Origin: an uncultured Chloroflexia bacterium
GTDB taxonomy: Bacteria; Chloroflexota; Limnocylindria; Limnocylindrales; CSP1-4
NCBI GenBank assembly: GCA_963778815.1
Contig: CAVZVS010000004.1
Location: forward strand, 131,987 to 195,986
DNA length: 64,000 nucleotides
Direction: 5' to 3'
The notes under the pieces are model-generated. The model was not told the DNA's origin. It saw only the letters and a list, made by a program, of their open reading frames with translations, and did not search any database. Positions 5,584-64,000 of the stretch are shown here, in pieces (the first letter of the stretch is position 1; each line of letters begins with the position of its first letter). The position numbers were made by a program, and so were the translations under genes.

Positions 5584-8322
5584 TCACTTGAAGTAACCGG
5601 TCACGTCGAGGATGAGGTTGGTCGAGGCGGATGTGACCGGGGAGACGTACACCCCCTGGAGCGTGCCGCCGGCACCCAGCTGGACATCGAGCCCGTTCGC
5701 TCGGTTGTCGCCGACCGGGAAGTTCAGGGTGGATGACGGCGGGTTCGAGGTCGCCGTGGGGCCGACGAAGGCAAAGCCGCGCTGGTTCTGGTCGGCGACC
5801 GTCAGGTTACCCGTGATCGCGACCGCGTCAACGGGCGCCGCGTGACCGGTCCCGGCCACAGTGAACGTCCGAACGGTGTGGTTGGTGAACTTGCCGGCCA
5901 GGCCCGTGCCGTTCCGGGTGTTGAGCTCGCGGGTCGGCGCCAGGGGGAAGTACCGGGCCCCGGTGGCGTCGCTCGTGAAGTACCCGGTGAGATCGAGGAT
6001 GAGGTTGGTCGAGGCGGTCGTCACCGGGGAGATGTACACCGCCTGGAGCGTGTGCGAGGCACCGAGCTGGACGGTGATGTTGTTGGCCCGGTTGTCGCTG
6101 ACCGGGAAGTTGAGCGTCGACGAAGGCGGGTTCGCGCTGGCCGTCGGGCCGACGAACACGAAGCCGCGCTGGGTCTGGTCGGCGACCGTCAGGTTGCCGG
6201 TGATAGCCACCGCTGCGGCCGGCAGGCCGGGCACCGTGAACGTGCGGACGTTGTGGTTGGTGAACATCCCGGACAAGCCGGTCCCATTCCTGGTATTGAG
6301 CACCCGGGTCGGGTCGACCGCGGTGTAGGTCGCGTCGCCCGAACCGTCGACGAAGTACCCAGTCACGTCGAGGATGAGGTTGGTGGTCGCTCCGGCGACC
6401 GGCGAGACGTACACGGCGGCCAGTTCGCCGCTGCCGTTCAAGGCGACCGTCACCCCGTTGGCCCGGTTGTCGCTGACCGGGAAGTTCAGGGTCGACGAGG
6501 TCGGATTCGAGCTGGCCGTCGGGCCGACGAACACGAAGCCGCGCTGGCTCTGGTCGGCGACGGTCAGGTTGCCGGTGATCGCGACGGCGTTGGACGGGAT
6601 CACCCCGACCCCTGCGATCTGGAAGATCCGAGGCACGCTGTTGACGAACTTGCCACTGAGACCGGTCCCGTTCCTTGTATTGAGGATCCGGGTCGGGTCC
6701 ATCGGCGTGTAAGTCGCTCCGGGTGGGGGCGTCACGTGGATGTAGCCGGTCTTGGTCACGGAGTTCGAACCGACCGCGTTGGTCACGGTCAGCTTGACGT
6801 TGAAGTCACCCGGATTGAACGTGTGGGACGGGTTCTTCACGGTGGCGGTGGTGCCGTCGCCGAAGTCCCACGCCCAGGTGGCCGGGACGCCCGTGCTGGT
6901 GTCGGTGAAAGCGACCGCCAACGGGCCCTGGCCGGTCGTCGGCGTGGCCGTGAAGTCGGCGACCGGGGCGACCGGGCAGACCACGCCGGCGCAGCCGTGC
7001 AGGTAGGTCCGGGTGGGGATGTTCTCCGCCTCGAGGATGATGCCCGAGGCAGCGGTCGTGATCTGCTTGGTCGAGGTCCCGTTGTTCAGGCTGCCCGAGG
7101 CCGTGTTGCTGATGAACGGCGTGCCGATCGACGCGGCGCCGAAGCTCAGGGTGCTGAGAGAAGCCGTGCGCCGGGTGATCAGGTAGTGGCCCACCCCGGC
7201 GTCGGTGTCGGTGATGAACACGTTCGCCTCGTTGCTCTCACTGTCGAGAACGAGGACCGGCCGAGTGCCGTTCTGGCTGACGCTGGACACGATGCGGTTG
7301 GACCAGGTCCCGGCGACGTCGGCGTTACCGGTCCGGGCCAGGACATCGATGAGCGGGTCGCTGCCGGTGGTCCGGCTCGTCTTGACCGCGGCGATGACCC
7401 GCCCGCTGGCGTCGGTCTTCATGCTGATGTGGCCATCGGCCGACGCCGTTCCGGTGCCGCCGAAGGCGGTCTCGCGCGCGGTCCAGGTGCCATCCGGGTC
7501 GCCGTCCTTGTGGGCGGCGAAGTAGAAGGCCTCATCGCCCAGGGTCTGGTTGCCCCAGAGGACGCCGACGCCGTTGGTGCCGGTCACGGAGATCGCGGCC
7601 TGGTCGTCGGTCGTAACGGGGTTGCCCATGCCGGGGATGACGAACGGGGTGACCCAGAGCGTCCCGCCCGAAGTCGTGGAGTGGGACACCATGATGTTGG
7701 TGCCCTTGCGGTAGGCGACCCAGAGGAGGCCACTGGGCGCCTTGGCGATGGTCACCTCCGAGGTGCCCGCCCCGGCGACCGTGTTCGAGTCGACCTTCTT
7801 GGGGAAGCCACTGACGAGCGCGTATGTCTTAGAAGTGGCGTTGTATGAGTACTTGTAGAGGCGCAGGTCGCCGTTCGGCGAGATGTTCGACCCGCGATCG
7901 TGCGATGAGGCGACCCACAGGTTGGTGCCGTCCCAGAGCGCATCGGCGTGGGAACGGTTCCGGTTATCGACCGCAGTGGCCGTCGCCGACGTCGTCCAGG
8001 CCTGGGTGGCCATATTGAAGCTCTGGATCCGGTACGTCCCATTGGAGGTCGTGCCGCGATCGAACATGATCGCCCACCATCGGCCGTCGTTGAACCAGAG
8101 CTTGCTCTGGTTGCGCGACGAGGTGACGTCGTTGCCGCCGGTCCCCGTGTCGGGATCCGGCTTGTACACGAAGTCGGTGTAGCCGGGCCCGGGCACCGCA
8201 GGCGCTGCAGCCACCGGGACGATCGCGAGGAGACCGACCCCGAGGATCGCGATGAGCGATGCGGCGAGGGGCCTCAGACCCCTGCGCGAGCGGCGGACGC
8301 TACGAGCGCTGGACGGCATCAA
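5584..8322 (-). CDS. secreted beta-propeller (sialidase/BNR-like fold) - PKD - triple-repeat-domain protein
   Basis: ORF of 912 aa. Signal peptide RRGLRPLAASLIAILGVGLLAIVPVAAAP. PKD signature WDFGDGTTATVKNPSHTF. Three C-terminal tandem domains. Confidence 0.8.
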   Translation of the reverse strand: MMPSSARSVRRSRRGLRPLAASLIAILGVGLLAIVPVAAAPAVPGPGYTDFVYKPDPDTGTGGNDVTSSRNQSKLWFNDGRWWAIMFDRGTTSNGTYRIQSFNMATQAWTTSATATAVDNRNRSHADALWDGTNLWVASSHDRGSNISPNGDLRLYKYSYNATSKTYALVSGFPKKVDSNTVAGAGTSEVTIAKAPSGLLWVAYRKGTNIMVSHSTTSGGTLWVTPFVIPGMGNPVTTDDQAAISVTGTNGVGVLWGNQTLGDEAFYFAAHKDGDPDGTWTARETAFGGTGTASADGHISMKTDASGRVIAAVKTSRTTGSDPLIDVLARTGNADVAGTWSNRIVSSVSQNGTRPVLVLDSESNEANVFITDTDAGVGHYLITRRTASLSTLSFGAASIGTPFISNTASGSLNNGTSTKQITTAASGIILEAENIPTRTYLHGCAGVVCPVAPVADFTATPTTGQGPLAVAFTDTSTGVPATWAWDFGDGTTATVKNPSHTFNPGDFNVKLTVTNAVGSNSVTKTGYIHVTPPPGATYTPMDPTRILNTRNGTGLSGKFVNSVPRIFQIAGVGVIPSNAVAITGNLTVADQSQRGFVFVGPTASSNPTSSTLNFPVSDNRANGVTVALNGSGELAAVYVSPVAGATTNLILDVTGYFVDGSGDATYTAVDPTRVLNTRNGTGLSGMFTNHNVRTFTVPGLPAAAVAITGNLTVADQTQRGFVFVGPTASANPPSSTLNFPVSDNRANNITVQLGASHTLQAVYISPVTTASTNLILDLTGYFTSDATGARYFPLAPTRELNTRNGTGLAGKFTNHTVRTFTVAGTGHAAPVDAVAITGNLTVADQNQRGFAFVGPTATSNPPSSTLNFPVGDNRANGLDVQLGAGGTLQGVYVSPVTSASTNLILDVTGYFK
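5587..6717 (-). repeat. three tandem ~125-aa coding repeats (approx. 5587-5958, 5959-6333, 6334-6717)
   Basis: Units begin A[TR]Y(T/F)P..PTR.LNTRNGTGL and end TNLILD(V/L)TGYF, with shared AVAITGNLTVADQ.QRGF.FVGP...SSTLNFPV.DNRAN. Counted by hand as 128+125+124 aa. Confidence 0.85.
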
Positions 8323-53341: not shown

Positions 53342-54604
53342 GTGCGTGCCCCCGACCACACCCGTCGCGTCGTCGTCACCGGCCTCGGCGTCATCAGTCC
53401 GGTCGGCAATGACAAGGACAGCGCCTGGGCCAACCTGACCAACGGCGTCTCCGGCATCCGCGAGATCACCAAGTTCGACGCGTCCGCCTACGAGCAGCGG
53501 GCGGCCGGCGAGGTCGACGGATTCGTGCCCAGCCAGTGGATGGACGCCAAGGCCGTCCGCCGCAGCGAGACATCGATGCACTACGGGGTGGCCGCTGCGA
53601 AGCAGGCCCTGGCCGACTCGGGGTTCGAGATCAACGACGAGAACCGGACCGAGGTCGGGGTCGTGTTCGGCTCCGGAGCCGGCGGTCAGTCGCTCATGAT
53701 CGACAGCGTCAACGCCCTGCGCGAGCGCGGTCCGCGGGGCGTCGCCCCGACCTTCATCGCCAACGCCCTGCCCGATTCGGCCTCCGGCATGATCGCCATC
53801 GAGACGGGCGCGATCGGTCACAACATGTGCATCGTGACGGCCTGCTCGACCGGGACCCACTGCGTGGCCGAAGCCGCCGAGGCGATCCGCCGGGGCGACT
53901 GCATCGCGATCATCTCGGGCTCGACCGAGATGCCCCTGCTCGAGGTCGGCCACGCTGGCTTCGCCAACATGCGCGGCCTCGGGGAGCCCCGGCCGGGCGA
54001 GCCGGTCGAGACCGTGTCACGGCCGTTCGACCTGACCCGCAACGGCTTCGTCCTGGGTGAGGGCGCGGGATCCCTGTTCCTGGAGGACCTCGAGCTGGCC
54101 AAGGCACGCGGGGCACGGATCTACGCCGAGGTCGTCGGCTACGGGTCGGCCGCCGACGGCTGGGACATGATCCAGCCGATCGCCGGCGGGATCGGCTCCG
54201 CCCGGGCGATGAAGATGGCCCTCGAACGGCGCGGCGTGCCGGCCGATGAGGTCGACCTGATCAACCCGCACGGCACCTCCACGCCGCTCGGCGATCAGCG
54301 CGAGGCGGAAGCGATCTGGACCGCCTTCGGGGCCCATACCCCGAACATCCAGATCAGCGCGACCAAGTCGATGACCGGCCACATGATGGGTGCCGCCGGC
54401 TCCTTCGAGGCCTTCGCCACGGTCATGTCGGTGGCCGAGCAGACGGTTCCCGCCACCCTCCACTACCGCGATCCCGACCCGCTCTGCAACCTGACCATCG
54501 CGACCGAGACCCACCGTCGCGAGATCCGCTACGGGCTCTCGAACAACATCGGCCTGGGCGGCCACAACGGCGCCGTCATCTTCGGACGCTACGACGGAGA
54601 CTGA
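53342..54604 (+). CDS. fabF: beta-ketoacyl-ACP synthase II (KAS), copy 1
   Basis: ORF of 420 aa. VVVTGLGVISPVG...; active-site TACSTG, HGTSTPLGD, GHMMGAAG. Confidence 0.88.
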   Translation: MRAPDHTRRVVVTGLGVISPVGNDKDSAWANLTNGVSGIREITKFDASAYEQRAAGEVDGFVPSQWMDAKAVRRSETSMHYGVAAAKQALADSGFEINDENRTEVGVVFGSGAGGQSLMIDSVNALRERGPRGVAPTFIANALPDSASGMIAIETGAIGHNMCIVTACSTGTHCVAEAAEAIRRGDCIAIISGSTEMPLLEVGHAGFANMRGLGEPRPGEPVETVSRPFDLTRNGFVLGEGAGSLFLEDLELAKARGARIYAEVVGYGSAADGWDMIQPIAGGIGSARAMKMALERRGVPADEVDLINPHGTSTPLGDQREAEAIWTAFGAHTPNIQISATKSMTGHMMGAAGSFEAFATVMSVAEQTVPATLHYRDPDPLCNLTIATETHRREIRYGLSNNIGLGGHNGAVIFGRYDGD

Positions 54605-54679
54605 GCGGCGAATGACTACAATCCGAGCGCTGCCCCAGGTCGCTCCGTCGGCGACCTCCGGTCGACCCTGAGGTATCCC

Positions 54680-55945
54680 GTGCCAAGTCAGGATCCTGCC
54701 CGCCGTGCCGTGATCACCGGTCTCGGCGCGGTCATGCCCATCGGCAACGACTTCCCGACCTACTGGGCCAACCTCCAGGCCGGCGTGGCCGGGACCCGAA
54801 GCATCCAGAGCTTCGACGCCTCGGCCTTCGAGGTGCGCATCGCGGCCGAGGTGCTCGACTTCGACCCGGCTTCGGCCATGGATCCGAAGATGGCCCGCCG
54901 GATGAGCCGGTTCATCGCCTTCGCGATGGCAGCGGGCAAGGAGGCGGTCGCCGACGCCGGGCTCGACTTCGAGGCGATGGACGAGGACCAGCGCGATCGG
55001 GTCGGCGTGGTGGTCAATACCGGCGGCGGCGGGATCGAGCAGATCATCCACGGGACCCAGGTCCACGACCAGCGCGGGCCGCGCTTCGTCAGCCCGTTCG
55101 CGGTCCCTGCCCTGTCCGGTTCGATGGCCGGTTGCATGCTCTCGATGGAATACGGACTGACCGGGCCGATCATGACCCAGGTCGCCGCTTGTGCGTCCTC
55201 GGTGATCGCCTTCCACGATGCCCTGCGCCTGATCCAGACGGGCGAGTGCGATGTCGTCCTGACCGGCGGCTCGGAGGCGCCCATCTGGCCGATGGGCGTC
55301 GCGGCCCTGGGCAACATGGGAGCCCTGTCACGGCGTAACGACGACCCCGGCCATGCTTCGCGACCGTTCGACCGCAACCGCGACGGGTTCGTCCTCGGTG
55401 AGGGCGGCGGCGTCGTGGTGGTCGAGTCACTCGAGCATGCCCGGCGCCGGGGAGCGACGCCGATCGCCGAGATCCTGGGCGGGGCGCTGACCTCCGACGC
55501 GTTCCATATCAGTGCCCCGGAACCGACCGGTCGGGGCCAGATCAAGGCGATGCAGAACGGTCTGCGCAACGCCGGAGTGAGCGGCGACGAGATCGACTAC
55601 ATCGTGGCCCACGGGACCTCCACCTCGCTCAACGACGTGACCGAGACGCGGGCGATCAAGGGAGCCTACGGCGAGCAGGCCCGGCGGATCCCGATCAGCT
55701 CGCCCAAGTCGATGATCGGCCATCTGGTCGGGGCGGCCGGGATCGCCAGCGCGCTGGCTGCCCTCGGGGCCATCCGCGACGGGGTCATCGCGCCGACGAT
55801 CAACCTGGACGATCCCGACGACGAATGCGACCTCGACTACGTCCCCCTGGTGGCCCGCCCGACCAGGGTCGAGACGGCGATGATCAACGGCTTCGGCTTC
55901 GGCGGCCAGAACGCCGTCGCGGTCTTCCGGCGGGTCGTCGACTGA
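54680..55945 (+). CDS. fabF: beta-ketoacyl-ACP synthase II (KAS), copy 2
   Basis: ORF of 421 aa. AVITGLGAVMPIG...; active-site AACASS, HGTSTSLND, GHLVGAAG. Confidence 0.88.
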   Translation: MPSQDPARRAVITGLGAVMPIGNDFPTYWANLQAGVAGTRSIQSFDASAFEVRIAAEVLDFDPASAMDPKMARRMSRFIAFAMAAGKEAVADAGLDFEAMDEDQRDRVGVVVNTGGGGIEQIIHGTQVHDQRGPRFVSPFAVPALSGSMAGCMLSMEYGLTGPIMTQVAACASSVIAFHDALRLIQTGECDVVLTGGSEAPIWPMGVAALGNMGALSRRNDDPGHASRPFDRNRDGFVLGEGGGVVVVESLEHARRRGATPIAEILGGALTSDAFHISAPEPTGRGQIKAMQNGLRNAGVSGDEIDYIVAHGTSTSLNDVTETRAIKGAYGEQARRIPISSPKSMIGHLVGAAGIASALAALGAIRDGVIAPTINLDDPDDECDLDYVPLVARPTRVETAMINGFGFGGQNAVAVFRRVVD

Positions 55946-55987
55946 CCGGTCCCCGGGCGATCCGGCCGGGTCGACTGTCACCGGGAC

Positions 55988-56030
55988 GACAGGCGGCCTG
56001 TCTCTCGGCGGGCTGACCGGCCGCCCGGTC
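55988..56030 (+). terminator. two short GC hairpins after the second KAS gene
   Basis: gacagg-cgg-cctgtc (55988-56002) and gaccgg-ccgc-ccggtc (56015-56030). No U tract. Confidence 0.3.
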
Positions 56031-56088
56031 GGGTCTACGGTTCCCCTGACCTTCCCGACAGGGAGCTGACCCCGGAGGAACCGCCGCG

Positions 56089-56757
56089 ATGAACGCCACG
56101 ACGACGAACGCCGACCAGACCTTCACGATCATCCTCGACGACGACCACGAGCTGATGGCCGAGGGCCGTCTGCGCCGGGCCGACGCCGGGCCGACCTGGG
56201 CCAAGCACCGGGTCAAGATCGTGCTCGACGAAGGTGACACCAGTGGACACTCGGCCGGTGCCACGGAGCTGTCGATCAACCTCAGCTTCGAGGACGATGT
56301 CGCAGGTCATGCCCTCAGCCTCCACTTCCCGAACGCCCAGAAGGCCGACGAGTTCCGCAAGCGGCTCCTGGCCGGTGGGATCGTGGCCGGCGCCCTCGTC
56401 GTCGGCGTGACCGCCGCTCAACTCTCGGCGAGCGTGCCCGCCACGTCGGTCGCCGCTCCGGCCCCGATCGTGGTCGCGGCGCCGGCTCCGGTCGCCCAGC
56501 CCCTGACCAACCCACGGATCCCGGCCGAGGATCTCGCCCCCGTCGCGCGCAGCGTCCCTGTCGAGCAACCGCTGGTCAATCCCCGGCTGCCGATCGAGGA
56601 TGTCGCTCCGGCGATCCCGCTGGCCAATGGCGCGCCGATCGAGCAGCCCCTGGTCAATCCCCGGCTTCCCGCGGAGGAGTTCGCTCCGGGCGCCTCGTCC
56701 GCGACGACCGGCGCTGCGCTGCCGACCGACCCCAAGAGCTTCCGACGCGGCAAATAG
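56089..56757 (+). CDS. acidic-x-G-H motif protein 1: cytoplasmic motif domain, one TM, Pro-rich repeat ectodomain
   Basis: ORF of 222 aa with a GGAGGA RBS. VKIVLDEGDTSGHSAG and LSFEDDVAGHALS (plus degenerate ILDDDHELM). TM LLAGGIVAGALVVGVTAAQL. 3x (A/E)QPL(T/V)NPR(I/L)P.E(D/E). Confidence 0.6.
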   Translation: MNATTTNADQTFTIILDDDHELMAEGRLRRADAGPTWAKHRVKIVLDEGDTSGHSAGATELSINLSFEDDVAGHALSLHFPNAQKADEFRKRLLAGGIVAGALVVGVTAAQLSASVPATSVAAPAPIVVAAPAPVAQPLTNPRIPAEDLAPVARSVPVEQPLVNPRLPIEDVAPAIPLANGAPIEQPLVNPRLPAEEFAPGASSATTGAALPTDPKSFRRGK

Positions 56758-56895
56758 ACCTCGGCGCCGGGGAGACCCGGCCGCCCTTCGCTCCCAGCGG
56801 CGGACCGTCCTTCGGGATGGTTCGTTCGCATTCCTGCCGATCGATCGCCTTTCGTCGCGTTGTACGCTCCTGATCGAGCCACGAACGGAGGCCCG

Positions 56896-57492
56896 ATGAT
56901 CGGGATCAGCGTCGTCGAAGCCCCCTGGGGACCGGTCCACATCGCCGCCGATGGCCAGGGCGTGGTGGGCCTGGAGGTCCTGACCGGGACCGCTGCGTTC
57001 ATCGCCTCGGTCCAGAAGCGGCGGCCCGCGGAGGTCGTGGCGCAGGCGCCGGACGACTTGCCGGGACCCGCAGCGCGGCACCACCTCGGAGCGGCCGCCG
57101 ACGCCGTCGAGGCCTACCTTGGCGGGCGTCCGGACGCGTTCGTCGAGCTCCCCTTCGCCCTGGATGGCCTGACCGGCTGGGACCGGCTTGTGCTCGACGG
57201 CGTTCGGAGCGTGCCCTGGGGCGAGCTGACCAGCTACGGGCGATTGGCCCGCCAGATCGGTCGACCAGGTGCCGCCCGGGCCGTCGGTGGCGCGGTCGGG
57301 CGGAATCCCATCGGCCTGATCGTGCCCTGCCATCGGGTCATCGCCGGGGACGGTTCGATCGGCGGTTACGGCGGCTCGTGGTACGGCGATCGTGAGGTGC
57401 TCCTCGGGATCAAGCGCAGCTTGCTCGGTCTCGAAGGCAGCACGCTCGGTGGCGCTGTCGCCTGGACGACCTTCGGACGGCGTCACGGGTGA
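56896..57492 (+). CDS. ogt: methylated-DNA--protein-cysteine methyltransferase
   Basis: In-frame part of ORF 56860..57492. ATG 56896 follows GGAGG. ...GRNPIGLIVPCHRVI... Confidence 0.8.
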   Translation: MIGISVVEAPWGPVHIAADGQGVVGLEVLTGTAAFIASVQKRRPAEVVAQAPDDLPGPAARHHLGAAADAVEAYLGGRPDAFVELPFALDGLTGWDRLVLDGVRSVPWGELTSYGRLARQIGRPGAARAVGGAVGRNPIGLIVPCHRVIAGDGSIGGYGGSWYGDREVLLGIKRSLLGLEGSTLGGAVAWTTFGRRHG

Positions 57493-57567
57493 CTTCCCGT
57501 CGGCCCCATGGGACGCCTAGACTCGGGACTGCGACGGTCCGGTCGCGAACGCGACGAGGAGAACCCG

Positions 57568-57753
57568 ATGACCGAGCCCGAGGATCAGCCGACGCCAGCG
57601 GCCGACGAGGACGACACCTCCGGCCACTCGCTTGGCGACGACTACGCTCGTCAGCACGCCGCCCAGCGGGCGCGCGAGACCGACCAGTGGGCGGCCCGCG
57701 AAGCCATCCGCAAGGTAGCCAAGAGCCCGCTCGACCGACTCCGCGGCCGCTGA
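57568..57753 (+). CDS. acidic-x-G-H motif protein 2 (single motif + basic helical tail)
   Basis: ATG 57568 follows GAGGAG (inside ORF 57508..57753). MTEPEDQPTPAADEDDTSGHSLGDDYARQHAAQRARETDQW... Confidence 0.5.
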   Translation: MTEPEDQPTPAADEDDTSGHSLGDDYARQHAAQRARETDQWAAREAIRKVAKSPLDRLRGR

Positions 57754-57769
57754 CCCCCAGCGGGGTCCG

Positions 57770-59431
57770 GTGAGCGTCCTTCGCGCCTACCGCGGCCTTC
57801 TCTCGAACGGACCGCTGGTCCGTCTGCTCGGCGGCGAGTTCATCAGCTCGATCGGCGACTGGTTGTACCTCGTCGCGCTGCTCATCGTTGTCTACCAGGT
57901 CAACCAGGACCCGCTCATCCTGGGCATCGTCGGGGCGGCCCGGATCCTGCCCTACGTCCTGCTATCGATCCCGGCCGGGATCGTGGCCGACCGGTTCGAG
58001 CGCCGGATGGTCCTGCTGGTCACCGATGTCGCCCGCGGCCTGATCATGCTGGCGATGGCCTGGCTGGTGGCCGTCGAAGGACCGCTCCTGGCGATCGTCG
58101 GGTTGGCCGTGCTCGCCACCTGCTTCTCATGCTTCTTCGGTCCGACGATCGGCGCCTATCTGCCCAACCTCGTCCGGGACGAGCACGAGCTCGGCCCGGC
58201 CAACAGCGCCTGGTCGACCCTCGACAACCTAGCCTTCGTGATCGGGCCGGCGGTCGCGGCCCTGCTGATCGCGGCGAGCGGACTGGCCCTGGCCTTCGTG
58301 CTCAACGCGATCTCGTTCGCGTTCGTGGCGATCATCCTGTGGCGCCTGCCAAGCGAGCGCGGGAGCGGCGCGACCGAGCCCTCGGTCGTGGAGGCGGCCG
58401 CCGCTGAGACGAAGGCCGCGCCCGTCCCGACGATCGATCGCGAGACGCTGGTGCCACTGGCCGGGCTGGCCCTGATCGACACGGTGGCCGGCTTCGTCTT
58501 CGGCGGCCTGGGAGTCCTGACGGTCATCATCGCGGTCGATCGGCTGGGAGCCGATGAGGCGGCGACCGGGTTCCTCAACGCCGCGATCGGGGTCGGCGGG
58601 ATCGTCGGTGCCGTCGGCTCGTCGGCCTTCGTCGTTCGACCGGCCTTGCGCCTGCCGCTGATCCTGGGTTCGTGCCTGTTGGCCGCCGGCGTGGCCGCGC
58701 TGGGCCTCACGACGAGCCTCGGCCCGGCCCTCGTCGCGATGGCCCTTGCCTCGGCTGGCAGTCTGCTGACCGAGGTCGTCAGCACGACCCTCTTCCAGCG
58801 GACCGTGCCCGACATCGTCCGCGGTCGGGCCCTGGGCACGATCGCCACCATCTCGACCCTCGCCTACGCCGCCGGCTCGCTGGTCCTGCCCGTCGCGGCC
58901 GGGGTCGTGGGCATCGAGCCGGTCCTGCTGGCTTCGGGCCTCCTGGTCGTCCTGGGCGCCCTCGTCGCTGTCTGGTTGATCGGCTCCGCCGGCAGCCATG
59001 GCCCATCTGCCGAGCTGACCGCCGCGGCGACCAGAGTCGTCGGGTTGACCGTGTTCGCCGGCGTTCCGGCGTCGCGCCTGGCCGACAGCCTGTCCCGGGC
59101 GATCGAGCTCGAGGTGGCAGCAGGCACCGTCGTCATCCGTCAGGGCGAGCCGGCGGATCGGTTCTACGTGATCCTGGCCGGCGCCTTCGAGGTCGATCAG
59201 GCGGACCCGGTCAGCGGTGCGATCAGCCGCCTGCGGACGATGGGCGAAGACGAGGTCTTCGGTGAGATCGGGCTGCTTACCGGATCGGCCCGGACGGCGA
59301 CCGTGACCGCCGCGACGCCGGGGCGCCTCGTCGCCCTGGACGCGGCGGAGTTCCTCGGCCTGGTAGGGTCGGCTGCGGAGGTCGGACCACGCCTGCTGGC
59401 GATCCACCGGGGCGGTGCGCTCGCCGGTTGA
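57770..59431 (+). CDS. MFS transporter fused to a C-terminal cyclic-nucleotide-binding domain
   Basis: ORF of 553 aa. About 12 TM helices, then ...VIRQGEPADRFYVILAGAFEV...FGEIGLLTGSARTATVTA... Confidence 0.8.
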   Translation: MSVLRAYRGLLSNGPLVRLLGGEFISSIGDWLYLVALLIVVYQVNQDPLILGIVGAARILPYVLLSIPAGIVADRFERRMVLLVTDVARGLIMLAMAWLVAVEGPLLAIVGLAVLATCFSCFFGPTIGAYLPNLVRDEHELGPANSAWSTLDNLAFVIGPAVAALLIAASGLALAFVLNAISFAFVAIILWRLPSERGSGATEPSVVEAAAAETKAAPVPTIDRETLVPLAGLALIDTVAGFVFGGLGVLTVIIAVDRLGADEAATGFLNAAIGVGGIVGAVGSSAFVVRPALRLPLILGSCLLAAGVAALGLTTSLGPALVAMALASAGSLLTEVVSTTLFQRTVPDIVRGRALGTIATISTLAYAAGSLVLPVAAGVVGIEPVLLASGLLVVLGALVAVWLIGSAGSHGPSAELTAAATRVVGLTVFAGVPASRLADSLSRAIELEVAAGTVVIRQGEPADRFYVILAGAFEVDQADPVSGAISRLRTMGEDEVFGEIGLLTGSARTATVTAATPGRLVALDAAEFLGLVGSAAEVGPRLLAIHRGGALAG

Positions 59432-59579
59432 GCCACGAGTGTCGCCCATGCGACCACGACGACGTCGCCTGTCGGCCAGCCCGGTTCGGACCGCACCGTG
59501 TACGGTTGCAGCCGGGTGGACCTGACCGCAAGCCACCCGTTCGGTCGACCGAGGGCCGCGCGGCCGGCAGGAGGCACTG

Positions 59580-59867
59580 ATGGCAGAGCACGATGAAAGC
59601 AAGACCTCGGCGATGCGCCCACGTATCGACGACGACGATGTCGAGGGCCATTCGATGAGGACGCGGGTCGACGGCGGCCCGGACGACTTCCAGATGCGAG
59701 CCGATGCCGGTGACGACGTCGAGGGTCATTCGGTGAAGGTCCGTGTCGATGGTGGCGAGGATGACGTCGAGGGCCATGCGCAGGTCCGTCGGATCGATGC
59801 CGACGAGGACGACGACGTCGAGGGCCACTTCGGCCAGCTGAAGAGCCCGACCAGCCGAGGCGAGTAG
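59580..59867 (+). CDS. acidic-VEGH motif protein 3 (four motif copies)
   Basis: ORF of 95 aa. AGGAGG RBS with a 5-nt spacer. RIDDDDVEGHSM, ADAGDDVEGHSV, DGGEDDVEGHAQ, DEDDDVEGHFG, plus degenerate DGGPDDFQM. Confidence 0.6.
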   Translation: MAEHDESKTSAMRPRIDDDDVEGHSMRTRVDGGPDDFQMRADAGDDVEGHSVKVRVDGGEDDVEGHAQVRRIDADEDDDVEGHFGQLKSPTSRGE

Positions 59868-59891
59868 CCGGGAGGGCGGCCGACGATTCGG

Positions 59892-60719
59892 TCAGCCGCC
59901 CGGCCGAGCCCCGTTCGAGACGGCCGCCAGGATCGCCTTCACCTCGAACGGTGAGGCGCTGGGGTGCTTGGCCCGGATGAGGGCCGCCAGCCCGGCGACG
60001 TGCGGGGCAGCGAAGCTGTTGCCGGTCGCGATGATCCGGCTGCCATCCTTCCAGGCCACGTCGACATCGACACCGTATGCCCCGAACTCGACCGGTGGAC
60101 GTGGGTTGTAGAACCACGTCCAGCGGTCGGCGATGTCGTGGGCGGCGACCGAGATGACCGAGGCGAACAACGACGGATAGCTCGGCCCGGGCACGTTGTT
60201 GGCAGCACTGACCAGGACGACGTTGGCGAAGTAGGCCTCGTCGGCGATCTCATGGAAGACGCCGAACAGGGCATCGCTCTTCGATGACAGGCTCAGGTTG
60301 ATGACCGACGCCCCCTGGGCGATGGCCCACTCCAGCCCGGCCGCGAAGATCGTGCCTTTGCCTCGATTGTCCGGCCCGAGCACGCGGACCGAGATGATCT
60401 CCGCTCCCGGTGCCAGCCCGTGGATGATCCCGGCGCAGGCGGTCCCGTGACCGACCACGTCGATCGCCTCCGGATCGTCGACCACGACCGGGTCCTCCTC
60501 GCCGGGCTCGACCCGGACGCTCCGGATGAGCTTGCCGCCGACCGCCGGATGATCGCGCTCGACACCCGAGTCGACGATGGCCACGGTGACGCCGGTCCCG
60601 TCGACCCCGCCGAAGGCCGTCTCGCGGTCCATCCCGGCGATCGGCACGAGGCGGTCCAAGGCGTCCCGCCGCTCCCCTACGAACGGCTCGCTCCAGGCCG
60701 GCAGGTAGGGGTCGGTCAA
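59892..60719 (-). CDS. S8 (subtilisin-like) serine peptidase, no signal peptide
   Basis: ORF of 275 aa. AIVDSGV (Asp), GHGTACAG (His), SAANN (oxyanion Asn), GNSFAAPHVAG (Ser). The ATG overlaps the GAF gene stop (ATGA). Confidence 0.85.
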   Translation of the reverse strand: MTDPYLPAWSEPFVGERRDALDRLVPIAGMDRETAFGGVDGTGVTVAIVDSGVERDHPAVGGKLIRSVRVEPGEEDPVVVDDPEAIDVVGHGTACAGIIHGLAPGAEIISVRVLGPDNRGKGTIFAAGLEWAIAQGASVINLSLSSKSDALFGVFHEIADEAYFANVVLVSAANNVPGPSYPSLFASVISVAAHDIADRWTWFYNPRPPVEFGAYGVDVDVAWKDGSRIIATGNSFAAPHVAGLAALIRAKHPSASPFEVKAILAAVSNGARPGG

Positions 60720-61567
60720 CGGTCGTCGCTGCGCGCCGACGGTCCAGGGCGACCGCGTCGGCGGGAGCGGACATCACGCTCGGCCTGCCTGGCCAGGGCG
60801 TCGAGCAGATCGCTGACCAGCTCGAGCCGATCTGGGCCGACCCGTCGGATCCGGGCCACCTGCTCGACCAGCGTCCACAGCCGGGAGTCGTCTTCACGAC
60901 CCAGTCCGTCGGTCGCCGCGCGGACCAGCTCATCGAGGGCAGCCTCGGTCGACGGGCCGTCGAGATCGGCACCTGCTGATGCGGCCAGGTCGGCCAGGGT
61001 CGCCCGGAGCAGTCCAGCCAGGTCGCGCTCGACCCGACTGGCCCGGATGGCCACCGTGGCCTGCCGGGCGAAGACGCCGGCCAGCTCGATGTCGCGCAGC
61101 GAGAAGGCGGCCTGGCTGCGCTTGTCGAGGACCTCCAGCACGCCGATCGTGCCGTGCTCATCGATGAGCGGCACGGCCACGATCGAACGGGGCACATAGG
61201 CCGTCTTCTCGGCGACCGTCCGACCGAAGCGCGGGTCGCTGGCGACATCCGACAGGGCCAGGGCCTGGCCGGAGGTGAAGACATAGCCGGCGATGCCCTG
61301 ATCCGGGCGGATGGCGACCCCGATGACGCCCTGGCCCTGCTCACCGGCTGCGACCTCGAAGATCAGCTTGTCGGTCGCGGCGTCGTACAAGGCGATCGAC
61401 GACGCCTCTGCTTCGAACAGGGCGACGGTCGCCTCGACGACCGAGCGGAGGACGGCACGCGCCGAGCCGATCTCCAGGCGCCGAGCGACCTCAGCCCGGA
61501 GAGCGATCCGCTCCAGGAGTCCGAGTGCCTCCTGACCGAGTGTCGAGCGGCCAGCATCGTCAGCCAT
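60716..61567 (-). CDS. GAF domain protein with C-terminal helical domain
   Basis: ORF of 283 aa. ...ASSIALYDAATDKLIFEVAAGEQ...GIAGYVFTSGQALALSDV...VAVPLIDEHGTIGVLEVLDK... It starts 6 nt after the crp stop. Confidence 0.8.
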   Translation of the reverse strand: MADDAGRSTLGQEALGLLERIALRAEVARRLEIGSARAVLRSVVEATVALFEAEASSIALYDAATDKLIFEVAAGEQGQGVIGVAIRPDQGIAGYVFTSGQALALSDVASDPRFGRTVAEKTAYVPRSIVAVPLIDEHGTIGVLEVLDKRSQAAFSLRDIELAGVFARQATVAIRASRVERDLAGLLRATLADLAASAGADLDGPSTEAALDELVRAATDGLGREDDSRLWTLVEQVARIRRVGPDRLELVSDLLDALARQAERDVRSRRRGRPGPSARSDDR

Positions 61568-61573
61568 GAGCGC

Positions 61574-62272
61574 TCACCGTTCGGCGGCGCGGGCGAGCCG
61601 ATCGAGATCCGGGATGATCAACGCGTCGCGCTCCAGCCGAACGAGATCCTGGGCGGTCATGTCGGCCAGGAGTCGGTTCACGGTCTGGCGCGTCCCGCCG
61701 ATCATCGCGGCCAGATCGCTCTGGGTGAACGGCCAGTCGAGCCGGATGTCCTTGGTCACGCCGGGCTGGCTCTCGCCGGCGAGGCGGACGATCCGGCTGG
61801 CGAGCCTGCCGGGCAGGTCCAGGAAGTGGAGTTCCTCGACGTGACCGGTCAGTCGGCGCAACTCGGTCACGAGACCCGCGAAGAGCGCTTTGCGCAGCTG
61901 CGGCTGGGTCTCCACCAGGTCCTCGAAGCGGTCGCGGCGGAGGACCAGCCCTTCGGTCGGCTCGATGGCGACCGCGGTCGCTGAGTGGGGCGCCCCGTCG
62001 AGCAAGGCCAGCTCGCCGAAGAAGTCGCCGCGCATCAGGGTGGCGATGATCGCGCCTTCCTCGCCCTCGGGCGACGGCAGGACGATCTTGACCGACCCGG
62101 ATTCGATGATGTACAGCGAGTCGCCGGGGTCACCCTGGTGGAAGATCGTCTCGTTCTTGCGGTAGTGCCGTAGCCGCAACGAGGAGGCGCACAGGTCGAG
62201 CGTCTCATCGTCGACCTTGGCGAACAGGGCGCACCGGCGCAGTGCCTCGATGGCGAACGTGGCCTCGCTCAT
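61574..62272 (-). CDS. Crp/FNR family transcriptional regulator (cNMP-binding + HTH)
   Basis: ORF of 232 aa. ...IFHQGDPGDSLYIIESGSVKI...FFGELALLDGAPHSATAVA... and ...SDLAAMIGGTRQTVNRLLADM... Confidence 0.85.
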   Translation of the reverse strand: MSEATFAIEALRRCALFAKVDDETLDLCASSLRLRHYRKNETIFHQGDPGDSLYIIESGSVKIVLPSPEGEEGAIIATLMRGDFFGELALLDGAPHSATAVAIEPTEGLVLRRDRFEDLVETQPQLRKALFAGLVTELRRLTGHVEELHFLDLPGRLASRIVRLAGESQPGVTKDIRLDWPFTQSDLAAMIGGTRQTVNRLLADMTAQDLVRLERDALIIPDLDRLARAAER

Positions 62273-62394
62273 TCACCCTCCACTCGGTCACTCGACCGAC
62301 TGGGCGACATCGTAGTCGGCGCCCGCTGGGCAGTCGAGGCGGAATCGACGAGGCGGCGCCGGTCGGCGTCGCCTCGTTCAGAGCCTGATCCGGG

Positions 62395-62418
62395 CTGGAG
62401 CGCGTCGAGGCGCTCCAG
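62395..62418 (-). terminator. perfect 9-bp hairpin right after the repeat-protein stop
   Basis: ctggagcgc (62395-403), gtcgag, gcgctccag (62410-18). The stop codon is at 62426-28. A second, longer imperfect hairpin lies at ~62350-62381. Confidence 0.5.
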
Positions 62419-62425
62419 GGTTCGA

Positions 62426-63040
62426 TCACTTCTTGTGCGGACGGCTCGCTTCGCGGGTCTCGTGGGCGCGCAGGTTGCGCTGGATGTCCTGTTCGCGGGC
62501 ACGGGCGAGGTGCTGGCTAAGGACCGGGTTGCCCATCATGTGGCCCTCGGCATCGTCCTCGTCGCCGGTCGCACGGTGCTTGCCGTGACCCTCGACGTCG
62601 GCGTCGTCCTCGTCGCCGGTCGCTCGGTGCTTGTGGTGGCCTTCGACGTCGGCGTCGTCCTCGTCGCCGGTCGCTCGGTGCTTGTGGTGGCCTTCGACGT
62701 CATCCTCGTCGCCGGTCGCGCGGGGCGCGGGGCCCTTGCCGTGGCCTTCGACGTCATCCTCGTCGCCGGTCGCGCGGGGCGCGGGGCCCTTGCCGTGGCC
62801 TTCGACGTCGTCTTCGGTCGCGCGGGGCGCGGGGCCCTTGCCGTGGCCTTCGACGTCGTCTTCGGTCGCGCGGGGCGCGGGGCCCTTGCCGTGGCCTTCG
62901 ACGTCGTCTTCGGTCGCGCGGGGCGCGGGGCCCTTGCCGTGGCCTTCGACGTCGTCTTCGGTCGCCCGGGGCGCGGGGCCCTTGCCGTGGCCTTCGACGT
63001 CGTCTTCGGTCGCTCGGGGCTGCTTGGCGGGACTTGGCAT
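62426..63040 (-). CDS. acidic-VEGH motif protein 4: ten tandem motif units + basic helical tail
   Basis: ATG 63040 follows AGGAG (inside ORF 62426..63094). MPSPAKQPR, then 5x ATEDDVEGHGKGPAPR-type, 2x ATGDEDDVEGH, 2x ATGDEDDADVEGH and 1x ATGDEDDAEGH units, then MMGNPVLSQHLARAREQDIQRNLRAHETREASRPHKK. Confidence 0.65.
   Translation of the reverse strand: MPSPAKQPRATEDDVEGHGKGPAPRATEDDVEGHGKGPAPRATEDDVEGHGKGPAPRATEDDVEGHGKGPAPRATEDDVEGHGKGPAPRATGDEDDVEGHGKGPAPRATGDEDDVEGHHKHRATGDEDDADVEGHHKHRATGDEDDADVEGHGKHRATGDEDDAEGHMMGNPVLSQHLARAREQDIQRNLRAHETREASRPHKK
62540..63015 (-). repeat. in-frame tandem DNA repeat array (unit lengths 45/51/51/54/54/48/48/48/48/partial)
   Basis: Read directly. The 48-nt unit gtggccttcgacgtcgtcttcggtcgcgcggggcgcggggcccttgcc occurs at 62795, 62843 and 62891, and at 62939 with one substitution. 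Two identical 54-nt units lie at 62687 and 62741, and two 51-nt units that differ at two positions (gtgaccctc vs gtggccttc) lie at 62585 and 62636. Confidence 0.9.
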
Positions 63041-63178
63041 GGTGATCTCCTGTCGGCTTCCCGGACTTCGGCTCTTGTGATCGAGCCAGGTCATCTTGCG
63101 CCGAGGATGGATCGCCAGTCCAGCGCGTCGGGCGACGCTCAGAGTGTCGGGCAGGCGACCATCCGCTCGTGGACGGGC

Positions 63179-63661
63179 TCAGCCCCTGGTCACCGGTCGC
63201 ATCGGATAGACCCCGATCACGATGGGCGAGACGGGATCGAGCTGGAGCTCGTAGCCGACCTCCCCGCCCCGCAGCAGCTCCCCCAGCATGTGGCCCTCGC
63301 GGTCCGGCAGACCCACGAAGATCCGACCGGTCGATAGATCGATCCCGGTCACGTCATCGTCCTCCGTGGCGATCAGGAATCGTCGCCGGATCTCGTGCAT
63401 CGGGATGTACGCTCGGCTCTTGATGAACCGGCGCAGCTGCGCCGTGGTACAGGTCCCATGCCGGTCGACGGAGGGTGGCGGTCCGGTCGGCGGCGGTCCG
63501 CCGGTCGGCGGTTCGGAGGCGAGCGGCGGAGTGGCCTCGACCGGTCCATCGGCGAAGACGGCCGCGACATCGGGCGGAACGTCAGCGGGGATCGGATCCA
63601 ACACGTGCTCGAGATCGGATCCGGCCGGCTGGGCCGGCGGTCCGGATCGATCGACGTCCAT
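63179..63661 (-). CDS. hypothetical protein (Pro-rich N-terminus, compact C-terminal domain)
   Basis: Inner part of ORF 63179..63805 from ATG 63661. C-terminal ...TTAQLRRFIKSRAYIPMHEIRRRFLIATEDDDVTGIDLSTGRIFVGLPDREGHMLGELL... No family recognised. Confidence 0.35.
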   Translation of the reverse strand: MDVDRSGPPAQPAGSDLEHVLDPIPADVPPDVAAVFADGPVEATPPLASEPPTGGPPPTGPPPSVDRHGTCTTAQLRRFIKSRAYIPMHEIRRRFLIATEDDDVTGIDLSTGRIFVGLPDREGHMLGELLRGGEVGYELQLDPVSPIVIGVYPMRPVTRG

Positions 63662-64000
63662 GACCGGTCGGGTCGGGTCGGGATCGGTCAGGGCCGCCGA
63701 ACCCGGCGTGGCCGGGCGGGCGACCCTGGTCGGGTCGTGCGGGCGCGGGCCGCCACGATGATCGGGATGGCGCGGCCGCCCACCGCGACCGGTGCGACGG
63801 CTCAAGGTCGAGCCGCCGGCATCGATCGGCGGGCACGCCGAGTACGGGTCGGCTGGGGTCCAGCGTCGCCGAGGCGACGGGTGAAAGTGTCAGGCATCGG
63901 TCCGAACGCGTTGGGCTGGGCGCGCTCGTCTGGCGCGTCGGTCGTCCCGATGATACCGCGCCCGGCTCAGACCCCGTCGACGACGAGCAGGTCGAGCGGC

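Follow-up and report, generated by a model that had tools for sequence, protein, structure and literature searches.

The 64,000-nucleotide stretch of DNA analysed here, referred to below as the window, comes from an uncultured Chloroflexia bacterium (GenBank assembly GCA_963778815.1, contig CAVZVS010000004.1, positions 131,987 to 195,986 of the forward strand). Towards its 3' end it contains four genes, named A to D, whose products share a short acidic motif with the core D-V-E-G-H. These genes are interleaved with others for a CRP-family regulator (Crp), a GAF-domain protein, a subtilase of the Peptidase_S8 family (S8) and a transporter of the major facilitator superfamily (MFS) with a domain for binding cyclic nucleoside monophosphates (cNMP). 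A preliminary description, made from the sequence alone, had listed the four open reading frames (ORFs) as preceded by good ribosome-binding sites and as holding 17 copies of the motif, with none in any other convincing coding sequence of the window, and both statements were borne out by the analysis that follows.

Four genes sharing a short linear motif

The four genes are the following:

56089-56757, + strand: gene A, 222 aa, two motifs; membrane-anchored DVEGH protein
57568-57753, + strand: gene B, 61 aa, one motif; 17 nt upstream of the MFS gene
59580-59867, + strand: gene C, 95 aa, four DDVEGH units and a conserved C-terminus, GHFGQLKSPTSRGE
62426-63040, - strand: gene D, 204 aa, ten (E)DD(V/A)EGH units with a period of 16-17 aa

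A six-frame regular-expression scan of the whole window with D[VTA][ESA]GH gave 17 matches, two in A, one in B, four in C and ten in D, and 0 matches outside these genes. The related pattern [DE][VTA]EGH had 0 matches in the other 55.5 kb, the background of the motif being 0-1 per 55 kb. The window is ~70% GC and contains many spurious ORFs; a Shine-Dalgarno-like GGAGG or AGGAG sequence lies 6-10 nt before the ATG of each of A, B, C and D. Neither a search of 55-64 kb of the window against Rfam nor a scan for sigma-70 and terminator consensus sequences returned anything.

When the codons of repeat arrays from 20 loci were compared in pairs, those of the motif showed 113 synonymous and 11 non-synonymous differences, which argues for selection on the peptide and not on a DNA repeat, while the spacer codons of the same arrays gave 135 synonymous and 244 non-synonymous differences. 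In some arrays the spacer is also constant despite many synonymous changes, as in loci L085 (spacer NIRTKLED), L050 and L079. Among 487 distinct copies the DVEGH core is near-invariant. The repeat unit consists of an acidic run, DVEGH and a short basic segment, with up to 13 identical units per array, and many of the proteins terminate a few residues past the last GH. The composition of the spacers is polyampholytic (D+E 23%, R+K 17%, His 2.2%, Cys 0%). In loci collected around the subtilase (see below) EVEGH, DAEGH, DTEGH and DIEGH variants were found, and a single-motif layout, with a short polar leader, DVEGH and a conserved tail, is frequent. Two tail types recur, a basic helical one (..P.L...LAR.RE.D[IV][QE]R..), seen in B and D, and P-[ST]-x-G-E / KSPSSRGE, seen in C. 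Thus the basic helical tail that B and D had been noticed to share belongs to a C-terminal module that recurs in many relatives. We conclude that A-D are real genes of an undescribed family, defined by a short linear motif consisting of an acidic run followed by [D/E]-[V/T/A]-E-G-H, and that outside this motif the family proteins are hypervariable and mostly disordered.

This family had not been recognised in the preliminary description, and the same was true of every resource consulted. None of A-D has a Pfam-A match at E <= 0.1 or a PADLOC match, and against NCBIfam they gave only spurious low-complexity matches, with 12-15 bits versus cut-offs of 450-710; with the neighbouring 208-aa protein included, the Pfam, NCBIfam and PADLOC scans yielded nothing usable. 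All names given by the sources to relatives of A-D are 'hypothetical protein', and literature searches on DVEGH, on the EGH motif and on the combination of GAF, S8, Crp and MFS found nothing relevant. An exhaustive phmmer search with C against 1.84 billion representatives returned only 72 proteins at E <= 1e-3, all of them unannotated repeat proteins. With conservation limited to ~8 residues per unit, the family all but escapes homology search.

Beyond the motif, the four proteins differ in architecture. The product of gene A has a folded N-terminal beta domain, one transmembrane (TM) helix and a disordered Pro-rich tail, with DTSGH at residues 50-54 and DVAGH at residues 70-74. Both motifs and the TM helix are conserved in 25 homologues, in which AGPTWAKHRV and the TM segment are invariant. 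The AlphaFold2 model of its N-terminal domain consists of five strands and a helix (block-mean predicted local distance difference test score, pLDDT, ~64-89), with DTSGH predicted in a loop after strand 40-46 and DVAGH as the turn between strands 60-67 and 74-79. A search with this model against the PDB gave no significant match, only weak PH/Ran-binding-like ones with probability <= 0.28. The C-terminal half of A (56448-56757) contains a second, unrelated repeat, PL(T/V)NPR(I/L)P(A/I)E(D/E)(L/V/F)AP, on the predicted extracytoplasmic side, and the copy number of this NPR(I/L)P(A/I)E(D/E) tail repeat varies among homologues.

The product of B starts with an acidic 'leader' that ends in EDDTSGH and is followed by a conserved 41-aa basic helical tail. 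Among its 36 cluster-level relatives D-T-x-G-H is invariant and the N-terminal part variable, and the 41-residue tail is strongly conserved as YARQHA..KARE.D.WA..LRKQAKSPLDRLRGR. A search with C led to 131 small proteins, 54-170 aa long and each bearing 2-6 copies of DVEGH; in 39 sequences the last motif and P..RGE are invariant, and the AlphaFold2 prediction for C, made with 39 homologues, is a disordered protein devoid of secondary structure (pLDDT 56). Database relatives of B and C include metagenome-assembled genomes of Chloroflexota / 'Candidatus Limnocylindrales'. In D, which at the DNA level is a 48/51-nt tandem array, a conserved tail, basic and helical (MMGNPVLSQHLARAREQDIQR...RPHKK), comes after the units. 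In long-read-style assemblies (L001 5686-8504, L002 14916-15580 and the D-homologue region of L003/L004) repeat genes, the ATPase mentioned below and others are frameshifted, and the D homologue is split into two or three ORFs, so that the repeat number and reading frame of the array are unreliable there.

A conserved module and a common operator in two phyla

The genes that accompany A-D in the window are listed here:

57770-59431, + strand: MFS_3/EntS-like transporter (MFS_1/MFS_3) with a C-terminal cNMP_binding domain
59892-60719, - strand: subtilase (Peptidase_S8), 275 aa, leaderless and propeptide-less
60716-61567, - strand: GAF protein, a GAF domain with a helical C-terminal extension
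61574-62272, - strand: CRP-family regulator, cNMP_binding and HTH_Crp_2 domains
63179-63805, - strand: U208, a conserved 208-aa protein adjoining D, with no Pfam/NCBIfam match

Close relatives of the window keep the whole neighbourhood. Since this is uninformative on its own, loci were searched by the motif itself: each GTDB species was represented by one genome, and pairs of DVEGH codon strings separated by 33-63 nt were sought, with fewer than one chance match expected (an estimate that assumes uniform base composition). At least 120 loci were found; among the matches listed, 68 were from Actinomycetota and 50 from Chloroflexota, and 2 others lacked a motif ORF. The Actinomycetota carriers include Geodermatophilus, Nocardioides, Marmoricola, Naasia, Jatrophihabitans, Frankiaceae, Gaiellaceae and Solirubrobacterales, and except for the motif the encoded proteins are extremely diverse. 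Partner genes were then sought by tblastn with the window proteins, within one fixed 8-kb block for each of 118 listed loci. An S8 orthologue was present in 73 of the 118, with 45-57% identity even in Actinomycetota, and GAF in 74; at least one of S8, GAF and Crp was found in 83. The motif gene usually adjoins the partner genes or lies within a few hundred nt, and in Actinomycetota it is commonly part of the GAF-S8 operon, with crp divergent.

The reciprocal search started from an alignment of 28 subtilases (A2) and led to 80 metagenome loci, and counts were made on the 18 whose flanks were both 1.5 kb or longer. GAF was present in all 18, Crp in 17, MFS in 10 and a [D/E][V/T/A/I]EGH gene in 16. 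Conserved synteny with GAF, S8, Crp and the cNMP-domain MFS, which the preliminary description had named as a test, was therefore found across Chloroflexota and Actinomycetota in both search directions. All-against-all clustering of ~7,400 ORFs from 200 loci revealed no recurrent peptide-modifying or tailoring enzyme, and besides Crp, GAF, S8 and MFS no ORF family was present in more than 19 of the 200 loci; the recurrent ones were U208, an M24 peptidase, an ECF sigma factor and an HMA ATPase. Soil Chloroflexota and Actinomycetota thus have a conserved, unannotated gene module and regulon, of which A-D are one instance. The curated families, defence-system models and literature searched contain no description of this regulon, of the Crp-GAF-S8-MFS module or of the motif family.

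The regulon is defined by a shared upstream element. All palindromes with 4-5-nt arms were searched 30-330 nt upstream of the first motif codon, and in all three data sets the top palindrome was TGTC-N8-GACA, in its extended form (G/C)TGTC(G/A)-N6-(C/T)GACA(G/C). In Actinomycetota, 35 of its 42 occurrences fell in the upstream zone, which makes up 4.5% of the sequence (p = 1e-40); the figures were 46 of 58 in Chloroflexota (5.4% of the sequence, p = 2e-47) and 32 of 46 in the S8-centred metagenome loci (3.7%, p = 2e-35), while control palindromes showed no enrichment upstream of motif genes. A perfect operator-like site precedes 114 of 234 motif ORFs, and 184 have one with no more than one mismatch. 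Orphan motif genes, with no S8 in the block, also carry it: a perfect site was present in 19 of 27, including those of Geodermatophilus amargosae and of L008, a locus of unrelated context. In 57 of 159 distinct regions a TAnnnT hexamer stands at an offset of 59-61 nt, counted from the operator's first base, and at other offsets it is almost absent. The distance from the operator to the TAnnnT -10 element downstream is ~52 nt. The promoter geometry thus appears fixed, the site being centred at roughly -62 to -65, and this phasing suggests that the operator is an upstream activator site.

The 64 kb of the window contain four occurrences of TGTCR-N6-CGAC, one ~100-125 nt upstream of each of A, B, C and D:

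55976-55991, + strand: operator-like palindrome TGTCACCGGGACGACA, perfect TGTC-N8-GACA, 98 nt upstream of A; -10-like TACGGT at 56036-56041
57456-57471, + strand: operator-like site TGTCGCCTGGACGACC, within the 3' end of ogt and 97 nt upstream of B; TAGACT at 57518-57523
59440-59455, + strand: operator-like site TGTCGCCCATGCGACC, ~125 nt upstream of C; TACGGT at 59501-59506; site conserved in L005
63145-63160, - strand: operator-like site GGTCGCCTGCCCGACA (gene strand), ~105 nt upstream of the D start; CAAGAT at 63098-63093

The position of the CAAGAT hexamer favours 63040 over 63094 as the start of D. The palindrome GTCGC-N4-GCGAC was recognised as the inner part of the larger TGTC-N8-GACA site; its only other occurrence in the window, at 6386-6399, is far from the cluster, lacks the outer T/A and is probably unrelated. 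TGTC-N8-GACA is also the published consensus of the box recognised by CooA, a member of the CRP/FNR family (PMC7306483). From the distribution of these sites the cluster Crp would control four transcription units, namely A, B-MFS, C and D-crp-GAF-S8.

The domain matches of the accompanying proteins were as first stated, i.e. a Crp/FNR regulator, a GAF protein and an MFS transporter with a cNMP domain, and so was the presence of a signal-peptide-less subtilisin with an intact D-H-S triad, coupled to GAF. The latter (PF00082, 107.9 bits) has its triad at D50/H91/S235 and its oxyanion residue at N175, aligning to D32, H64, S221 and N155 of subtilisin BPN'; triad and oxyanion Asn are invariant in 28 orthologues. 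It was found to have no signal peptide, no I9 propeptide and no C-terminal anchor, ending with the catalytic domain, and its TTG start overlaps the GAF stop codon (TTGA). Its identity to subtilases that adjoin DVEGH genes in both phyla is 45-94%. In the S1 region, the 156-166 loop of BPN' is deleted and G154 is replaced by N. The subfamily also has a near-invariant N-terminal signature, (L)PAWS(E/L), and an invariant Cys95 in GHGTAC, beside the catalytic His. One clade (L189, L195, L197, L198 and L201) carries P-E-V-E-G-H in Lys/Pro/Ala-rich spacers, and its subtilases differ at positions 116 (R/K), 122 (an otherwise invariant G changed to A) and 124 (Q), which correspond to BPN' 98/104/106, in the strand lining the S4 side of the cleft in subtilisin BPN'.

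The GAF domain (PF01590, 62 bits) has as its nearest solved relatives those of PDE5, PDE2A, PDE10A and the cyclase CyaB2 (E = 3e-15 to 8e-10), plus an HD-type phosphohydrolase. The C-terminus of the GAF protein (AERDV...) was considered as a mimic of the DVEGH tails and rejected, its sequence not being conserved across orthologues. In the transporter, the phosphate-binding cassette of the cNMP domain (FGE...RTA) is canonical. Crp (PF00027, 101 bits; PF13545, 59 bits) has M. tuberculosis CRP as its best solved relative (E = 3.7e-36). Its recognition helix, TRQTVNR, has Gln at the position of E. coli CRP Glu181, the residue that reads the base pair where the TGTC-N8-GACA box differs from TGTGA; many Actinomycetota orthologues have Pro there. 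The phosphate-binding cassette of the window Crp, FFGELALLDGAPHSATA (GAPHSATA, residues ~84-102), has His at the position where the FGE...R[ST]A consensus has Arg, and among 80 cluster orthologues Arg is present in 51 and His in 29. This substitution suggests an altered or lost cNMP response in the Crp lineage of the window; the Crp family as a whole looks cNMP-responsive, the ligand of the window copy being uncertain.

Several other genes surround the module. U208 has a conserved C-terminal domain of ~90 aa (CTTAQLRRFIKSRAY...EDDDVTGIDL...REGHMLGELL...YPMRP) and recurs beside D-type genes in 13-19 loci, all of them Chloroflexota-type, as a lineage-specific protein. The ogt gene, for an Ogt methyltransferase, is located upstream of B, with the operator-like site of B in its 3' end. 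In relatives ogt is adjoined by a heavy-metal P-type ATPase gene (HMA and E1-E2 ATPase domains), mostly between A and ogt (L002 6867-9230, L005 6853-9216, L010 16029-18740 and L011 4528-7272, the last with cupredoxin/Cu-oxidase domains); in the window there are only ~100 bp between A and ogt (56757-56860), and the ATPase is absent at that position. Two tandem KAS-II (FabF-like) genes at 53342-55945 (+) are directly upstream of the cluster, a pair conserved in L002, L005 and L011 and preceded by FabD in relatives. In 13 GTDB Actinomycetota loci (e.g. L089 4651-5319) an ECF-type sigma-70 factor (Sigma70_r2 and r4) is encoded near DVEGH, GAF and S8.

A putative recognition site for the subtilase and competing explanations

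The observed base for a mechanism is the co-location of these genes and their one shared cis-element. On this base, we assign a probability of about 0.5 to a reading in which the leaderless subtilase coupled to GAF recognises DVEGH as its P5-P1 site and cuts the family proteins under the control of Crp and a cyclic nucleotide. The strict order of residues and the invariant Val and Gly argue for recognition by a protein pocket; the subtilase is the only enzyme universally linked to the motif and S8 leader peptidases read pentapeptides laid out alike, so that D-V-E-G-H can be read as P5-P1. PatA, an S8 leader peptidase, cuts after G(L/V)E(A/P)S, and ElxP, a cytoplasmic S8 protease, recognises (D/E-5)(L/V-4)xx(Q-1) and cuts after it (PMC10885120). 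The possibility that the multi-copy proteins are substrates or precursors of the S8 peptidase had been raised in the preliminary description and stands as the best explanation, with the cleavage itself putative. The cut had been placed there N-terminal to E-G-H, which would expose ends of the amino-terminal Cu(II)- and Ni(II)-binding (ATCUN) type; this position is the less likely one, as the known S8 leader peptidases cut after a pentapeptide with acidic P5 and aliphatic P4, pointing to cleavage after His.

In the proposed sequence of events, Crp would switch on the DVEGH genes together with crp-GAF-S8 and B-MFS. The subtilase would then read D-V-E-G-H as acidic P5, beta-branched or aliphatic P4 and small P2, with cleavage after His, and its GAF partner may gate it through a small molecule that is probably a cyclic nucleotide. 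From multi-repeat proteins, C and D among them, many acidic/basic peptides of 11-30 residues would result, while single-motif proteins of the B type would lose the acidic leader and release the conserved basic helical tail, and in the membrane protein A the cuts would fall on exposed loops of the cytoplasmic domain. Speculatively, the cNMP-gated MFS might export the product. The sites would be accessible, given that C is predicted to be disordered and the motifs of A are modelled in loops. As for the signal, the nearest solved relatives of the GAF domain bind cyclic AMP or cyclic GMP (cAMP/cGMP), the cNMP domain of the transporter is canonical and 51 of the 80 Crp sequences have the cassette Arg, so the sensors look to be of the cyclic-nucleotide type; gating by cyclic nucleotides appears plausible for the family and uncertain for the window Crp.

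A number of points weigh against processing at the motif. The assignment of the cleavage site rests on analogy and gene linkage, and with the S1 region of S8 remodelled relative to BPN' the P1 preference cannot be read off the sequence. The coincident changes in EVEGH and in S8 residues 116/122/124 come from a single clade and are confounded by phylogeny. About 30-40% of the listed motif loci have no S8 in the 8-kb block, though most of these carry the operator. An MFS protein is an unusual exporter for peptides of 11-30 residues, and it is present in only 10 of the 18 S8-centred loci. The His that replaces the cassette Arg makes the ligand of the window Crp uncertain, and the conserved C-terminal tails could equally be docking elements and not products.

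A wider proposal, which we put forward tentatively and hold to be possible at less than even odds, is that the module represents an unrecognised, cNMP-triggered cytoplasmic polyprotein pathway common to Actinomycetota and Chloroflexota. Here a dispersed regulon of DVEGH-tagged disordered proteins would be induced by Crp, through a CooA-like operator, and cut at the tag by the GAF-gated subtilase, the fragments acting as intracellular effectors or exported signals. Among the products would be large numbers of short peptides without modification, basic helical effectors of conserved sequence and a membrane protein in clipped form. If this holds, ribosomal peptide systems would gain a new class, whose defining feature is a protease tag and not a fold.

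Among the alternatives to processing at the motif, the one that survives best, which we nevertheless regard as unlikely, is that DVEGH is a docking or pseudo-substrate motif through which the repeat proteins would multivalently bind the S8 cleft, the GAF domain or a cNMP domain. They would then be inhibitors, scaffolds or regulators of the protease, Crp or the MFS, with the true substrates elsewhere. The linkage and regulon data are identical for docking and for cleavage. S8 lacks the I9 propeptide, the normal chaperone and inhibitor of subtilisins, which makes a partner acting in trans conceivable; the multivalency, with arrays of up to 13 identical units, would suit a sponge or scaffold, and the conservation of spacer residues despite synonymous change in L085, L050 and L079 fits a defined binding unit. 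However, a pentapeptide with aliphatic P4 and Gly at P2 in the cleft of a catalytically intact subtilase would normally be cut, and the single-motif proteins, with their succession of leader, motif and tail, resemble pro-forms more than sponges.

Somewhat less likely again is a function in metal binding (as a Cu/Ni/Zn/Mn buffer) or as hydrophilin-type desiccation proteins, which the subtilase would merely remove when unneeded. One His and 3-5 carboxylates are available per unit, C is predicted to be disordered and the spacers are polyampholytes. The carriers are soil and desert-type taxa, e.g. Geodermatophilus, and in relatives the HMA-domain P-type ATPase is located between A and ogt, once with a cupredoxin domain. 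The composition test was negative, though, with His not enriched outside the motif (2.2%) and Cys absent. Chelation would leave the invariant Val and Gly and the fixed order unexplained, and neither the dedicated GAF-S8 pair nor the membrane protein A finds an explanation in it; the ATPase is present in only 9 of the 200 loci and absent from the window. The part of the preliminary description that proposed metal buffering or a dehydrin-like stress protein is thus weakly supported, given the His and Cys contents and the fixed order of the motif.

That these proteins are multi-core precursors of ribosomally made peptides that are modified after translation (RiPPs), with cores modified by unlinked enzymes, S8 as leader peptidase and the MFS as exporter, seems improbable. 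The layout is cyanobactin-like, the conserved sites flanking spacers that are hypervariable between species and near-identical within a protein; S8 leader peptidases are common in RiPP pathways and the MFS is EntS/MFS_3-like. Yet no tailoring enzyme recurs among the ~7,400 ORFs, the spacers have no Cys and few Ser/Thr or aromatic residues, the scores of S8 with the NCBIfam models for PatA/G, QhpE and mycosin are far under the cut-offs, and housekeeping genes surround these genes in Limnocylindria-type genomes. Finally, the notion that the motif is a side effect of high GC or of a repeat at the DNA level, with the small ORFs not being genes, for which the tandem repeat of D and a genome of ~70% GC rich in spurious ORFs might speak, is effectively refuted by the 113 to 11 excess of synonymous differences in motif codons, the conservation of the motif across two phyla with different spacers, the Shine-Dalgarno sequences and phased promoter/operator, the conserved non-repeat tails of B and C, and the lack of any motif match in the five remaining frames or in the rest of the window (55 kb).

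Relation to known systems and biological meaning

The module is most like S8-processed multi-copy precursors, such as cyanobactins, LanP/ElxP substrates and Kex2 repeat proteins, yet the hallmarks that define each of these systems are missing from it. With the cyanobactin system, PatA/PatG and PatE, it shares an S8 protease beside a precursor in which several conserved pentapeptides flank hypervariable segments, and the PatA site has the same layout as D-V-E-G-H, with aliphatic P4, Glu at P3 and small P2. On the other hand, the module of the window has no YcaO heterocyclase, macrocyclase domain or DUF domain, its spacers have no Cys, and its S8 reaches 28.4 bits with the PatA/G model TIGR03895, versus a cut-off of 421. 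DVEGH modules also include Crp, GAF and the cNMP-MFS, and belong to Actinomycetota and Chloroflexota, not to cyanobacteria.

Of the class I lanthipeptide leader peptidases (LanP), ElxP is likewise a cytoplasmic subtilase; no published site comes closer than its own to acidic P5, aliphatic P4 and polar P1, and single-motif proteins such as B resemble a leader-site-core layout. DVEGH loci differ in having neither LanB nor LanC, in putative substrates that consist of repeats or long helical tails and show no pattern of Cys, Ser or Thr, and in the coupling of the protease to a GAF protein. No conserved tailoring enzyme having been found in the 200 loci, assignment to the RiPP clusters in general was rejected. 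Two other S8 families were also discarded: mycosins (TIGR03921, 122.9 bits versus a cut-off of 278.75), with S8 showing no signal peptide or anchor and having Crp, GAF and MFS as neighbours, and QhpE (NF049966, 106.6 bits versus 165), with no qhp genes seen in the loci.

Fungal Kex2 repeat proteins and pro-pheromones of the alpha-factor type are polyproteins of many near-identical short units, cut by an S8 protease at a short conserved site; Kex2 substrates are eukaryotic, pass through the secretory pathway (Golgi) and have a dibasic cleavage site. In the DVEGH module, by contrast, all is cytoplasmic and the proposed site is acidic-Val-Glu-Gly-His. Small, disordered, highly charged proteins with short conserved repeats are also known among hydrophilins and general stress proteins (GsiB, YciG, KGG-repeat). 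A-D differ from them in the lack of any Pfam match, and the DVEGH proteins in having a dedicated module of protease, sensor and regulator.

On the regulatory side, M. tuberculosis CRP and C. glutamicum GlxR are the regulators nearest to the window Crp by sequence. The 16-bp palindromic operator is identical to the CooA consensus, TGTC-N8-GACA, whereas CooA is absent from the 60 best solved relatives of the window Crp, among which CRP, GlxR and the cNMP domains of PKA/PKG are present. The module differs from known CRP/FNR regulons in the Gln or Pro that replaces Glu in the recognition helix, in a regulon made up of DVEGH genes and, for the window copy, in the His at the position of the Arg that binds the cAMP phosphate. 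In kind, this would be a system of protease-processed repeat precursors under a CRP-family regulator, with a substantial chance of being something more distinct.

In this module three sensor domains of the cyclic-nucleotide type (Crp, GAF and the cNMP domain of the transporter) are linked to a dedicated subtilase of the cytoplasm and to the proteins that are its probable substrates, and the shared TGTC-N8-GACA operator before DVEGH genes, orphans included, is a new result. A five-residue tag that is invariant across two phyla, in proteins whose remaining sequence varies too much for an exhaustive homology search to recover more than 72 of them, illustrates how a whole regulon can escape family-based annotation. 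As some carriers are in culture, among them Geodermatophilus sp. CPCC 205761, Marmoricola sp. RAF53 and Nocardioides sp. Root240, the model can be tested directly. If it is true, DVEGH would be a new protease-recognition tag, whose substrates could be predicted genome-wide from motif and operator, and cAMP/cGMP signalling in soil Actinomycetota and Chloroflexota would gain a concrete proteolytic output.

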